Origin: Minisyncoccota bacterium
GTDB taxonomy: Bacteria; Patescibacteriota; Minisyncoccia; Phycocordibacterales; GCA-2747955
Assembly (NCBI GenBank): GCA_020629435.1
Contig: JAHDDI010000001.1
Coordinates: forward strand, 1 to 39,210
Direction: 5' to 3'
DNA length: 39,210 nucleotides
In this document: positions 3,624-5,978 of the stretch, one piece after another
Layout of the letters: every line of letters starts with the position of its first letter
How positions within the stretch are numbered: position 1 is the first letter of the stretch
Translations under genes and position numbers: made by a program
Notes under the pieces: model-generated
Databases searched by the model: none
Told to the model about the DNA's origin: nothing
Seen by the model: only the letters and a program-made list of their open reading frames with translations

Positions 3624-3653
3624 CCAAGACGAATCAACGACTGTAATCTTACA
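3624..3653 (-). promoter_or_regulatory. ECF-type promoter-like motif C (TGTAAGAT-N14-CGTC) facing the giant surface protein gene
   Basis: Minus-strand read: TGTAAGATTACAGTCGTTGATTCGTCTTGG. The TAA inside the -35-like box is the stop codon of the upstream 246-aa gene. Box spacing matches motifs A, B and D. Confidence 0.55.
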
Positions 3654-4389
3654 GATTTGCGTTTGCTTGAATTTGAGCACTAGCACGTAACTCTGCTGAT
3701 GCCTGAGTCACTGCTTGAACAAATGCGTCTACTCGATTTGAACTAGTAATATTTGATTTGATATTAGATTCTATTTCAGTGTCAGTTTGTGCAGATACCT
3801 CTGAAGATACCACAAATGACCACCATGGTCGCTGCATCATAACTGTTACACTTGATGATTCATCAATAGTTATAACTGCTTTTTTATTCATCTTTGCAGA
3901 AAACAGCCCCATAATTTTTACTGGTGTTTTGTAAGAAACCACAACAGAATTATTAGATGTTTTTACAGATACATTAGCGTCAGATGACTGTTCCACTGCC
4001 GCGGCTGATTGTATTTGTGCGTTTTCTTGAGATCCAAGCCCCATTATTGAAAATGTTGTTTTCGCTGATCCTTGAGATTGTGACGTGGTATTGGTTTGTG
4101 TGTTCTCTACTCGAACACCAGATTGTGCTTCAACTCCAACCTCTGTGTTACTGTTTGTAATTAATTCTACTGGCACTTCAGGGTCCATATCAATTGTTGT
4201 GTTGGTATCTAACGTTGTATCACCTTCTACTTCAGCAGATAGATTTGTAATCTGCATTGTTTTCGTGTTGTTGCCTGTATCGACATTTGTCATTGCATTA
4301 CCTTCTGCGTCTAATTCAATCATTCCGTATGCGGGGACTGCAATGAGTGCTGATGTTGTGAGTAATCCCAGTGTGTGTGTTATTTTCAT
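3649..4389 (-). CDS. Secreted hypothetical protein (246 aa from the ATG; the track's TTG start at 4410 is the alternative)
   Basis: ORF track 3649..4410. The internal ATG gives MKITHTLGLLTTSALIAVPAYG, a signal peptide. The protein is Thr/Ser/Asn-rich with no recognisable domain. Confidence 0.7.
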   Translation of the reverse strand: MKITHTLGLLTTSALIAVPAYGMIELDAEGNAMTNVDTGNNTKTMQITNLSAEVEGDTTLDTNTTIDMDPEVPVELITNSNTEVGVEAQSGVRVENTQTNTTSQSQGSAKTTFSIMGLGSQENAQIQSAAAVEQSSDANVSVKTSNNSVVVSYKTPVKIMGLFSAKMNKKAVITIDESSSVTVMMQRPWWSFVVSSEVSAQTDTEIESNIKSNITSSNRVDAFVQAVTQASAELRASAQIQANANL

Positions 4390-4440
4390 AATATTTTTAT
4401 TTATTAACAATGTAAACCATGTAATTGTGGTACGTATTAT

Positions 4441-4470
4441 TCAAGACGAATCAGTGCGGCCTATCTTACA
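4441..4470 (-). promoter_or_regulatory. ECF-type promoter-like motif B facing the 246-aa secreted protein gene
   Basis: Minus-strand read: TGTAAGATAGGCCGCACTGATTCGTCTTGA. The TAA inside the box is the stop of the anti-sigma candidate. Confidence 0.6.
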
Positions 4471-5383
4471 AACCAACACCTGGAACCAAGTCAATCTCGA
4501 TGTTTGATTCAACAGTTTCACCGATAGATGTGTCCACATTGATTGTTGCTGTTGCTGTTGCTGTTGCTGTTGCTGTTGCTGTTGCTGTTGCTGTTGCTTT
4601 AATTATTTGTGTTGAGCTTGTTGATACATCTGCTAGCACCTCGATTGCTATACTGGTTGCATTAACTACATTTGTTGGTTCATTGCCCTGGTCTGGACTA
4701 TATGAACTTAATTCTAATCTTGGGTTCTCTTGGCTCAAACTACTTTCTTGCTGATTGTCCTGTTCATCCATTAAATCTGCCAATACATCAATCGATACTT
4801 CTTCTGGTGCTATAAAATCATTTTGGTCAGCTAGGAGTGCAAATTCAAACAACGCTATTAATTCTGATGCCTGTAGATGGGCGTCATTGGTATCAGAAAC
4901 ATTGTATTGTGTTCGCATCTCAGAATGTGTTGCCATCATATCTGATTGTGTCTCGGATTCTATTTCAATTAAATGTTCTTCAAATTGTTGCTCTGCTATA
5001 GCGAGCTGATCTGCCGGCACTATATTGTGTTCTGTTCTTATCTCGATTATTTCTTCGATGCGTTCTATGGCAAGTTCGTGTTGATACTGAACGTACTGTT
5101 CATCGTCATACAACAATCCAACCAGGGGTTCTATTATTTCTGTCTCTAATTCATACAACATATCACCCGGAACACTGTACTGAGCACCAAATGCCAATGA
5201 TGCTGAACCAAAGAAAAACAATGTTCCAGCCGCTGCGATTTTCTTCCATTGCTGTTGCGACTGCATACCTATCTTTGGTGTGCCCAATATTGCTTGCTTC
5301 ATGTGGCGCTGTTCGGACATGCTTAATTCTGCTTGTTGCAGTATGGTAATGTCTTTATTAAATTGTTCTTGTGAATATTTCAT
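4466..5383 (-). CDS. Single-pass membrane protein, candidate anti-sigma factor (305 aa)
   Basis: It starts 5 nt after the ECF sigma stop. It has a cytoplasmic N-terminus of about 45 aa, a TM segment (WKKIAAAGTLFFFGSASLAFGA), and an acidic coiled extracytoplasmic part with a PGDMLYELE motif. Function is inferred from position only. Confidence 0.6.
   Translation of the reverse strand: MKYSQEQFNKDITILQQAELSMSEQRHMKQAILGTPKIGMQSQQQWKKIAAAGTLFFFGSASLAFGAQYSVPGDMLYELETEIIEPLVGLLYDDEQYVQYQHELAIERIEEIIEIRTEHNIVPADQLAIAEQQFEEHLIEIESETQSDMMATHSEMRTQYNVSDTNDAHLQASELIALFEFALLADQNDFIAPEEVSIDVLADLMDEQDNQQESSLSQENPRLELSSYSPDQGNEPTNVVNATSIAIEVLADVSTSSTQIIKATATATATATATATATATINVDTSIGETVESNIEIDLVPGVGL
4545..4598. 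repeat. Perfect hexanucleotide tandem repeat (GTTGCT)x9, in frame, encoding (Ala-Thr)x9 in the anti-sigma candidate
   Basis: Counted directly: nine contiguous GTTGCT units. The protein reads KATATATATATATATATATINVD. Confidence 0.95.
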
Positions 5384-5388
5384 AGTAA

Positions 5389-5889
5389 TTAATCAAGCAT
5401 TTTTTGTAACTGTTCCCGACCACGAGAAATACGTACCGACGTGTTGGATTCGCTAATGCCCAACATCAGCGCAATATCTTTTACTGACATATCTTCGACC
5501 AAGCGCAGATATATTGCTTCGCGGTATTTTTCATCTAATTGTTTCATGCAATTGATAACCATACCGTACTGCGAATTATTGATACTTGCGTCATAACCAT
5601 AAGTCGATTCTTCAAAATCAAATCCTTCTTCAAGGATTGCATCCAGTGATTGTGTACTGTGTTTACGGTAATGATCGATAATGGTATTTCTGGCGATTTG
5701 ATATAGAAATGATTTTGGATTTTCAGGAAGACCATTGTTTTGTATGTGTGAAAATAATTTAACAAATGTGTCTTGAGTTAAATCCAGTGCGGTATCTCTG
5801 TTGCTAGTTTTGTATAAACACAGCCGAAGAATGGTGTTTGAATATTCGTCATACAGGTCATTAAATTGTTGTGTTATGTGTTCGCTCAT
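5389..5889 (-). CDS. ECF-family RNA polymerase sigma-70 factor (166 aa)
   Basis: Region 2-like DLTQDTFVKLF...YQIARNTIIDHYRK. Region 4 HTH: MSVKDIALMLGISESNTSVRISRGREQLQKML. The size is typical of group IV sigma factors. Confidence 0.9.
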   Translation of the reverse strand: MSEHITQQFNDLYDEYSNTILRLCLYKTSNRDTALDLTQDTFVKLFSHIQNNGLPENPKSFLYQIARNTIIDHYRKHSTQSLDAILEEGFDFEESTYGYDASINNSQYGMVINCMKQLDEKYREAIYLRLVEDMSVKDIALMLGISESNTSVRISRGREQLQKMLD

Positions 5890-5892
5890 ATT

Positions 5893-5922
5893 CCATGACG
5901 TATAAAACGCCTTTATCTTACA
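5893..5922 (-). promoter_or_regulatory. ECF-type promoter-like motif A directly upstream of the sigma gene (autoregulation candidate)
   Basis: Minus-strand read: TGTAAGATAAAGGCGTTTTATACGTCATGG. CGTC ends 7 nt before the sigma ATG (5889), so the transcript would be leaderless or nearly so. Confidence 0.65.
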
Positions 5923-5948
5923 ATAATATCATAGGCAGTTAAACATTT

Positions 5949-5978
5949 TGTAAGAAATTGTTTATTGGCACGTCATGA
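5949..5978 (+). promoter_or_regulatory. ECF-type promoter-like motif D facing the 158-aa secreted protein gene
   Basis: Plus-strand read: TGTAAGAAATTGTTTATTGGCACGTCATGA. It has the same 14-nt spacer and lies back to back with motif A in the divergent intergenic region. Confidence 0.55.

Follow-up and report, generated by a model that had tools for sequence, protein, structure and literature searches.

A predicted autoregulated ECF sigma factor, its DUF5667-like membrane partner and four promoter-like sites in a Patescibacteria genome

Promoters of extracytoplasmic function (ECF) sigma factors have in common the bases AAC within their -35 element and CGT within their -10 element, separated by a spacing stated as a range of 14-17 bp, and the autoregulatory ones among them are highly selective (Gaballa et al., PMC5758882). 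The classification of Casas-Pastor et al. (2021, PMC7826278) distinguishes 157 groups of ECF sigma factors and assigns to each of them a typical partner and, as a prediction, an autoregulatory promoter. The main text of that work describes ungrouped ECFs as abundant in under-represented phyla and does not mention the lineages of the candidate phyla radiation (CPR). The stretch of DNA examined here, referred to below as the window, comes from such a lineage: its 39,210 bp correspond to positions 1 to 39,210 of contig JAHDDI010000001.1 from the Minisyncoccota bacterium assembly GCA_020629435.1. It carries the gene of an ECF sigma factor of 166 amino acids (aa), a gene for a 305-aa membrane protein directly 3' of it, neighbouring genes for secreted and surface proteins and four copies of a bipartite promoter-like motif. 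Transcriptional regulation is barely known in Patescibacteria/CPR, whose tiny genomes hold few regulators and which are mostly uncultured.

Several described systems resemble parts of this locus. The ECF consensus of Bacillus has a 16-nt spacing between its two boxes, and ECF-dependent transcription typically initiates 6-8 nt past the -10 box. Class I membrane anti-sigma factors (RsiW/RseA/ChrR type) carry at their N-terminus an anti-sigma domain of some 80-90 residues, in which a zinc-binding HxxxCxxC motif is frequent. In E. coli, the sigma-E-dependent small RNA MicL has its own promoter in the 3' part of an open reading frame (ORF) and shares the terminator of that ORF.

It is proposed here, with a probability of about 0.8, that all four motifs act as promoters for the RNA polymerase holoenzyme containing the 166-aa ECF sigma factor, which would be encoded in one operon with its membrane partner. 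The motif itself is confirmed as real. Four exact TGTAAGAW-N14-CGTC sites occur in the window whereas 0.01 are expected, none of 100 dinucleotide-preserving shuffles gave four, and all four sites (copies A to D) fall in the 2.3 kb around the sigma gene. A first-pass annotation of this DNA had given their coordinates and strands correctly, as well as the gap of exactly 14 nt in all four copies and the extension of the downstream box to CGTC-W-TG-R-A. All copies are oriented towards genes. Copies A and D stand back to back with 26 bp between their -35 boxes, and the TGTAAGA boxes of copies B and C contain, as had also been pointed out, the TAA stop codons of the 305-aa ORF (4468-4466) and of the 246-aa ORF (3651-3649), respectively. 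The motif was re-parsed as TGTAAG (-35), N16 and CGTC (-10).

A weight matrix trained solely on sites 5' of orthologous sigma genes gives the four sites 23.5-27.9 bits, the runner-up anywhere in the 39 kb having 12.1 bits. When up to two mismatches are allowed, nine matches are found in the window against 5.7 expected, the additions thus being at chance level. Because the matrix scores leave such a clean gap and a scan with a relaxed -35 box adds a single match, again at chance level, the local set is judged complete at four.

Relatives indicate what this motif does. Orthologous sigma loci were gathered from species-representative genomes, metagenome contigs and contigs encoding protein matches, giving 22 distinct loci (numbered with an L below) whose sigma proteins are 33-54% identical and which are labelled Patescibacteria/CPR where a record title existed. 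At 19 of these 22 loci, a site of the form G-T/A-A/C-A-N, 16 nt, CGTC (AGTC in L065) lies directly 5' of the sigma start codon. Conservation extends to both half-sites and to the length of the spacer, not to its sequence. The -35 box reads GTAAG at most loci, GTAAT in L067 and L069, GTCAG in L063, GAAAG in L026 and the canonical GTAAC in L028. The -10 box is CGTC at all site-bearing loci but L065/L066. There, both the sigma-upstream site (L065 466-490) and the site after the partner gene (1757-1781; same in L066) have AGTC, a within-genome covariation of the kind expected if one sigma factor reads both. No exact GTAAG-N16-CGTC site was found 5' of the sigma gene at the more distant ECF loci L005, L007-L021 and L038-L056, among which four reach 14-15 bits; in two of these distant loci, exact matches occur at other positions, as often as chance would give. 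These results bear out the earlier suggestions that the motif is an ECF promoter and that copy A autoregulates the sigma gene: the motif is very probably the autoregulatory promoter of the adjacent ECF sigma gene.

The distance from CGTC to the sigma ATG is bimodal. It amounts to 16-20 nt in seven loci, which form the L001 subclade, and to 5-7 nt in 12 loci, namely the window (7 nt for copy A), L003, L004, L028, L035, L061, L062, L063, L065, L067, L068 and L069. In these 12 lineages, no Shine-Dalgarno sequence is found between CGTC and the ATG (5889-5900 in the window). Given where ECF-dependent transcripts typically begin, the sigma mRNA of this short-distance class is therefore predicted to be leaderless.

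The motif could instead be the operator of another DNA-binding regulator, or a repeat spread by duplication or with a mobile cassette. Two near-identical palindromic hairpins flank the 3-kb module, and copies B and C have additional spacer and downstream bases in common (TGATTCGTCTTGRAT), which suggests duplication. In the relative L002, an exact duplicate of the sigma promoter is found together with a truncated 34-codon 5' sigma fragment directly after the 3' end of a tRNA (4620-4775). Such an origin does not explain why conservation is confined to the half-sites and leaves out the spacer, a pattern expected of -35 and -10 boxes, why the distance to the start codon is kept at 5-7 nt in 12 lineages, or why every copy faces a gene. 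The motif also resembles ECF consensus promoters (PMC5758882). Furthermore, it is kept across proteins that are just 33-54% identical, where neutral repeats would not survive, so that a non-promoter role appears highly improbable. As to the L002 duplicate, it sits 5' of a gene for a 334-aa protein that looks helix-turn-helix-like by eye; it resembles a recombination scar and may have put a new gene under the promoter.

The gene at 5889..5389 had been called an ECF sigma gene, and this identification holds. Its product has only the Pfam domains Sigma70_r2 and Sigma70_r4_2/r4, and it passes TIGR02937 (sigma70-ECF) with 91.3 bits for a cut-off of 42.9. It falls below the curated cut-off of every named NCBIfam ECF subfamily, including SigM (TIGR02950), PG0214/GFO_1088 (NF058625), SigZ, SigW and BldN; the top scores are 99.8 for SigM_subfam (cut-off 147.95) and 93.2 for sigma_PG0214 (cut-off 130), the rest being further below. 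The nearest solved structure is that of B. subtilis SigW (5wuq, E 9.5e-14). Its nearest relatives are encoded by metagenome-assembled genomes labelled Paceibacterota, Saccharibacteria or Patescibacteria.

In the proposed mechanism, copy A would start a probably leaderless transcript covering the genes of the sigma factor, the DUF5667-like partner and the 246-aa secreted protein. As copy A would drive the operon of the sigma factor itself, the circuit would be positively autoregulated. The partner would hold the sigma factor inactive at the membrane until an envelope signal frees it. Copy B, located in the last codons and the stop of the partner gene, would add sigma-dependent transcription of the 246-aa gene, and copy D would drive the divergent gene of the 158-aa secreted protein. 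From copy C, transcription would begin about 50 nt 5' of a strong terminator; either it would stop there, leaving a short transcript of about 85 nt, or it would read through into the gene of a giant surface protein. What has been observed is the motif with its statistics, the identity of the genes, and the conservation both of the promoter and of a three-gene cassette. That the sigma factor binds these sites, that the partner acts as an anti-sigma factor, where transcripts start and what signal induces the system is inferred.

In the 305-aa partner, a cytoplasmic N-terminus of about 46 residues is predicted to be followed by a hydrophobic helix (about residues 49-67) and by an acidic extracytoplasmic region that resembles DUF5667 and carries a PGDxLY motif. 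The protein has no Pfam match, even at E <= 10. When aligned by hhalign to a profile of ten sigma-linked partner proteins, it matches with a probability of 96% (E 3.6e-9) over the N-terminal helix, the transmembrane segment and the PGDxLY motif. Four of these ten proteins were scanned and all four match PF18915 (DUF5667). The sequence comparison thus makes the 305-aa partner a probable diverged DUF5667 protein. The sigma and partner genes are separated by 5 nt in the window and overlap by 4 nt in most relatives. With the exception of L036/L037, every orthologous locus on a contig that continues beyond the sigma gene keeps the two genes strictly linked.

The partner gene itself shows two further features. 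A perfect TGTTGC repeat within it encodes an alternating Ala-Thr run, and public short-read contigs of the locus stop near it, with 271 of the 305 partner residues called; variation in the length of this repeat is possible. In six relatives, the 5' portion of the partner ORF itself contains a complete GTAAGAAA...CGTCT site, whereas the window's own partner gene has no such copy. These sites encode V-R-(K/N)-x4-R-L, invariably as GTA AGA AAw ... CGT CTy. In the five relatives tabulated (L068 left out), the codons used are minor ones (fractions 0.09-0.24), and neighbouring conserved residues vary synonymously. In the relatives of the L001 subclade (L068 not included), the site lies about 50 nt 5' of a conserved in-frame Met that precedes the membrane helix. 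It may be an internal promoter giving rise to an N-terminally truncated partner.

Whether the partner is an anti-sigma factor is a question of its own. The pair of sigma and anti-sigma genes described in the first-pass annotation is partly upheld: the linkage is tight and the partner has a single membrane pass, but an anti-sigma domain or zinc motif is not detected. Like the class I membrane anti-sigma factors, the partner is encoded directly 3' of the sigma gene and is a single-pass protein; unlike them, it shows, as judged by sequence, no N-terminal domain of the expected kind, and DUF5667 is not among the recognised anti-sigma families. An anti-sigma role would follow from linkage and topology. 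Another explanation is that the DUF5667-like protein is a co-transcribed target or a positive signalling partner, the sigma factor being controlled otherwise. This would account for the absence of an anti-sigma domain in Pfam, NCBIfam and PDB profile searches (the search of the partner family against PDB returned nothing significant) and for the short cytoplasmic segment, and the in-ORF promoter copy of six relatives could yield a form that is devoid of this segment. It fits less well with the strict linkage to the sigma gene and the overlapping or nearly overlapping stop and start codons at all orthologous loci extending past sigma except L036/L037. A single pass with an N-terminal cytoplasmic helix is moreover typical of membrane anti-sigmas, and this helix is conserved between the window partner and its relatives. 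A role other than that of an anti-sigma is thus considered unlikely, and the partner is treated below as a presumed anti-sigma factor.

Copy B lies 55 nt 5' of the 246-aa gene, and its assignment to this gene, made in the first-pass annotation, is reinforced by equivalent sites in L069, L072 and L065. In L069, whose sigma factor is 49% identical, the partner gene ends in ...ISL-stop, written TTG TAA GA, and these bases make up the -35 box of a GTAAGA-N15-CGTC site. The gene that follows codes for P0018, which is the homologue most similar to the 246-aa protein (E 1.1e-14). In the same way, a 246-aa homologue is preceded in L072 by TTGTAAGAAATCCCGTTTTCATTCGTCTTGG, with the L-stop of the upstream gene within the box; the L072 contig, 1.9 kb long, covers no more than the homologue and the B-type site, the latter at the end of an incomplete upstream gene. 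L065/L066 have the gene order of the window and a B-type site with the variant -10 box AGTC, the third gene of L065 being homologous to the 246-aa protein (E 1e-9). In three or four lineages, a site equivalent to copy B thus closes the partner gene, and its -35 box usually includes the stop codon. The complete cassette (sigma gene, DUF5667 partner gene, B-type site and 246-aa homologue) recurs in L065/L066 and L069. Since this cassette is conserved together with its internal promoter, there is good evidence that copy B would act as a functional promoter of the 246-aa gene.

The targets had all been described as uncharacterised. This description goes too far, since the 246-aa protein belongs to a family with at least 86 representatives; the partner, for its part, is probably a member of the DUF5667 family. 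An exhaustive phmmer search returned 86 of them at E <= 1e-3, where a word-indexed search had returned only the query protein. The C-terminal core of this family reads ...V.V.Y..P.KLFGFIP...V.V..PWWSFL.... In the AF2 model of the 246-aa protein, residues 118-246 have a pLDDT of about 90; this C-terminal domain has no Pfam match, and Foldseek gave no PDB fold match (best E 0.17). A relationship to the SIMPL/DUF541 proteins encoded 3' of the partner in L003, L004 and L028 was considered and rejected (hhalign probability 0.7%). Concerning these SIMPL proteins, a site lies directly 5' of the SIMPL gene in L004, and a weaker 16-bit site is found in L003 (6002-6026; also in L029, L030 and L032) within a folD-like gene, about 650 nt 5' of the SIMPL-domain gene. 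They may be regulon members in the L003/L004 subclade.

Copy C is situated as indicated in the first-pass annotation, but its assignment to the surface-protein gene is doubtful because a strong hairpin of the intrinsic-terminator type, which was not mentioned there, precedes this gene. The hairpin lies about 50 nt past the predicted copy C start and 81 nt 5' of the ATG of the surface-protein gene (3459), and it is the natural terminator of the sigma operon. Given its position, transcripts from copy C would either end there, as an RNA of about 85 nt, or read through to the ATG. The target of copy C is therefore uncertain, the two outcomes being weighed as about equally likely. It is tentatively possible that copy C does not serve the surface-protein gene at all and makes a short sigma-dependent RNA of the 3'-UTR (untranslated region) type that is terminated by the hairpin. 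The 246-aa ORF has its stop codon within copy C, a 13-bp hairpin and a U-tract follow some 50 nt further on, no ORF starts in between, and the hairpin doubles as terminator of the sigma operon. As for MicL, a separate promoter in the last part of an ORF is combined at copy C with a shared terminator: the predicted ECF-type promoter lies at an ORF end and the intrinsic terminator of that ORF within about 85 nt. Unlike MicL, the copy C RNA is a prediction, and the layout is unique to this genome among the loci examined.

Other results speak for read-through or offer nothing to the short RNA. When compared with 35 translation-initiation regions of the window, the predicted RNA reaches -20.8 kcal/mol, no better than the best values of shuffled sequences (mean -19.0, sd 2.5). 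It has no Rfam match and no counterpart in relatives. Furthermore, a 246-aa homologue adjoins a giant surface-protein gene in L070/L071, and probably in L069, which fits co-regulation by read-through. In L070/L071 (4001-8798), the homologue is encoded just 5' of a surface protein of 4557 aa (L070) or 3257 aa (L071). The L070 protein has DUF8202, Laminin_G_3, TSP3 and PG_binding_1 domains; for the L071 protein, DUF8202 and Laminin_G_3 are recorded. Near the 246-aa homologue, these two loci have neither a sigma gene nor the motif. This neighbourhood, apparently shared by L069, suggests a functional link, and the pairing of the 246-aa family with giant adhesin-like genes may be general. In the window, no convincing housekeeping-type promoter is seen between the hairpin and the surface-protein ATG. 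The surface protein has an N-terminal signal-like segment, Asp-rich calcium-binding repeats of the TSP3 type, and Big_13 and PG_binding_1 domains.

The region of copy C holds another peculiarity. An imperfect 18-nt repeat (three copies, 77% matches) lies at 3553-3605, upstream of the hairpin and overlapping its 5' arm. The sequence GAUGGUCUUU, near the predicted copy C start, could pair with this arm at 8 of 10 positions when read by eye, which hints at a possible alternative RNA structure.

For copy D, a promoter role is plausible. The proposal that it serves the 158-aa gene has one parallel, a divergent GTAAGG-N15-CGTC site in L033, but this parallel is loose and the secreted protein encoded in front of the site is another one. 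No Pfam match exists for the 158-aa protein, whose single-sequence AF2 model was discarded for its low confidence (pLDDT 53.5). In L063 the sigma gene is directly divergent from a Pyr_redox_2 gene, which in the window comes after the 158-aa gene. This adjacency indicates that the 158-aa gene was inserted in the lineage of the window or lost in the other. A second hairpin stands between the convergent 158-aa and Pyr_redox_2 genes and is probably a bidirectional terminator. It is nearly identical to the one of the copy C region (ACAAAAACCACC...GGTGGTTTTTGT, at 3539-3574 and 6566-6604). The two hairpins, the sole ones of their kind in the window, bracket the four-gene module; they may represent one type of terminator used twice or mark where a cassette ends on either side.

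It should be emphasized that several points weigh against the four sites being promoters of one sigma factor kept in check by an anti-sigma partner. The -35 box has AAG, in the window and in most relatives, where the hallmark of ECF promoters is AAC. No zf-HC2, RskA or other anti-sigma model of Pfam or NCBIfam matches the partner, and its roughly 46 cytoplasmic residues are few and hold no Cys or His motif for zinc. Among the relatives examined, copy C has no counterpart, and a strong terminator follows it before any ORF; copy D has only its loose parallel in L033, and a word-indexed homologue search with the 158-aa protein returned the protein itself alone. Lastly, the start sites and the dependence on the sigma factor are predictions made from sequence.

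The coordinates of the features are given in Table 1. The rest of the window holds ordinary chromosomal genes, such as those for trigger factor, a class II aminoacyl-tRNA synthetase, a class A penicillin-binding protein, PolA and a pilus ATPase. A tRNA-Lys(UUU) at 18909-18982 and a tRNA-Pro(UGG) at 39134-39207 are the sole Rfam or ARAGORN matches in the window.

Table 1. Features of the sigma locus (window coordinates, except for the in-ORF sites of relatives, which are given on their own loci)
Feature	Position	Strand	Remarks
Surface-protein gene, at least 1153 aa	1..3459	-	runs off the window; Pfam Big_13 5.3e-14, PG_binding_1 2.5e-8, TSP3_bac weak
Intrinsic-terminator-like hairpin	3540..3570	-	13-bp stem, 5-nt loop, U-rich tail; terminator scan; fold -27.3 kcal/mol, z = -3.2
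Copy C	3628..3653	-	exact match, 23.5 bits; predicted promoter overlapping the stop codon of the 246-aa gene
246-aa secreted protein gene	3649..4389	-	signal peptide, low-complexity region of about 100 residues, conserved C-terminal domain with PWWSF motif
Copy B	4445..4470	-	exact match, 27.9 bits; predicted internal promoter in the final codons and stop of the partner ORF
305-aa single-pass membrane partner, presumed anti-sigma	4466..5383	-	5-nt gap to the sigma gene
Tandem repeat (TGTTGC) x 9.2	4544..4598		TRF, 100% matches; within partner ORF, alternating Ala-Thr run (TATATA...)
ECF sigma factor gene, 166 aa	5389..5889	-	Pfam Sigma70_r2 1.9e-14, Sigma70_r4_2 5.4e-15
Copy A	5897..5922	-	exact match, 25.6 bits; predicted autoregulatory promoter, TGTAAG (-35), 16 nt, CGTC (-10)
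Copy D	5949..5974	+	exact match, 25.7 bits; predicted divergent promoter, 108 nt 5' of the 158-aa gene
158-aa secreted protein gene	6083..6559	+	canonical signal peptide MKKITSLLILSLFSASFAFA/AE; 167 aa if ATG 6056 is used
Palindromic hairpin	6566..6604		between convergent 158-aa and Pyr_redox_2 genes; 18-nt perfect inverted repeat (I3), direct repeat family D2
Candidate in-ORF promoter copies of relatives	L001 6599-6623; L002 6626-6650; L022 5612-5636; L025 700-724; L027 5594-5618; L068 6587-6611		

Taken together, the pieces would describe a switch widespread in Patescibacteria/CPR, made of the sigma/DUF5667 pair and uncommon among ECF systems in several features: a leaderless sigma mRNA, a feedback promoter inside the partner ORF in one subclade, and an output through copy C. 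That all of these hold jointly is rather doubtful, and the consequences would be of interest if they did. The in-ORF promoter would produce a truncated partner without its sigma-binding end and thus constitute a built-in feedback device, and a small RNA or conditional read-through from copy C would tie the switch to the surface remodelling needed by ultra-small bacteria attached to their hosts. More directly, the TGTAAG-N16-CGTC code would provide a sequence handle for the prediction of this regulon in hundreds of metagenome-assembled genomes. The DUF5667 family would get a first functional context, as partner of a sigma factor, and an uncharacterised family of secreted proteins, possibly with giant surface proteins, would become tied to a circuit of envelope signalling. 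The loose ends of most interest are the in-codon promoter of the relatives, the leaderless design and the succession of promoter and terminator at copy C.

As for known ECF systems, the locus had been put forward as a possibly undescribed envelope module. In one respect this stands, as a literature search found no paper on ECF sigma factors or DUF5667 in Patescibacteria/CPR lineages, but the kind of system is well known. The -35 box, which had been said to match no familiar ECF group, is close to a classical one: TGTAAG-N16-CGTC is one base off the AAC/CGTC class of Bacillus, with AAG for AAC, and the orthologue L028 uses the canonical TGTAAC-N16-CGTC. Its unfamiliar look is partly due to the way in which the motif had been parsed.

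The resemblance to the Bacillus systems extends further. Both have a small two-domain sigma factor, the one of the window having SigW as its nearest structure and its best NCBIfam score, below cut-off, with the SigM subfamily. The -10 box CGTC and a -35 box of the form T-G-N-A-A-N are common to both, as are a membrane partner encoded further along the operon and targets that are secreted or of the envelope type. Unlike the Bacillus systems, the locus has a DUF5667-like partner without recognisable anti-sigma domain, its sigma mRNA is predicted to be leaderless, and its host belongs to Patescibacteria/CPR. In its logic, it is also built like the groups of the ECF classification as far as these are described in PMC7826278, with a conserved sigma factor, neighbour and upstream motif. 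The system is thus a probable autoregulated ECF sigma factor with a membrane partner, an ordinary switch of the stress-response type, of a known and not a new kind, in a poorly studied lineage; for ECF biology at large, it represents one further group obeying known rules.

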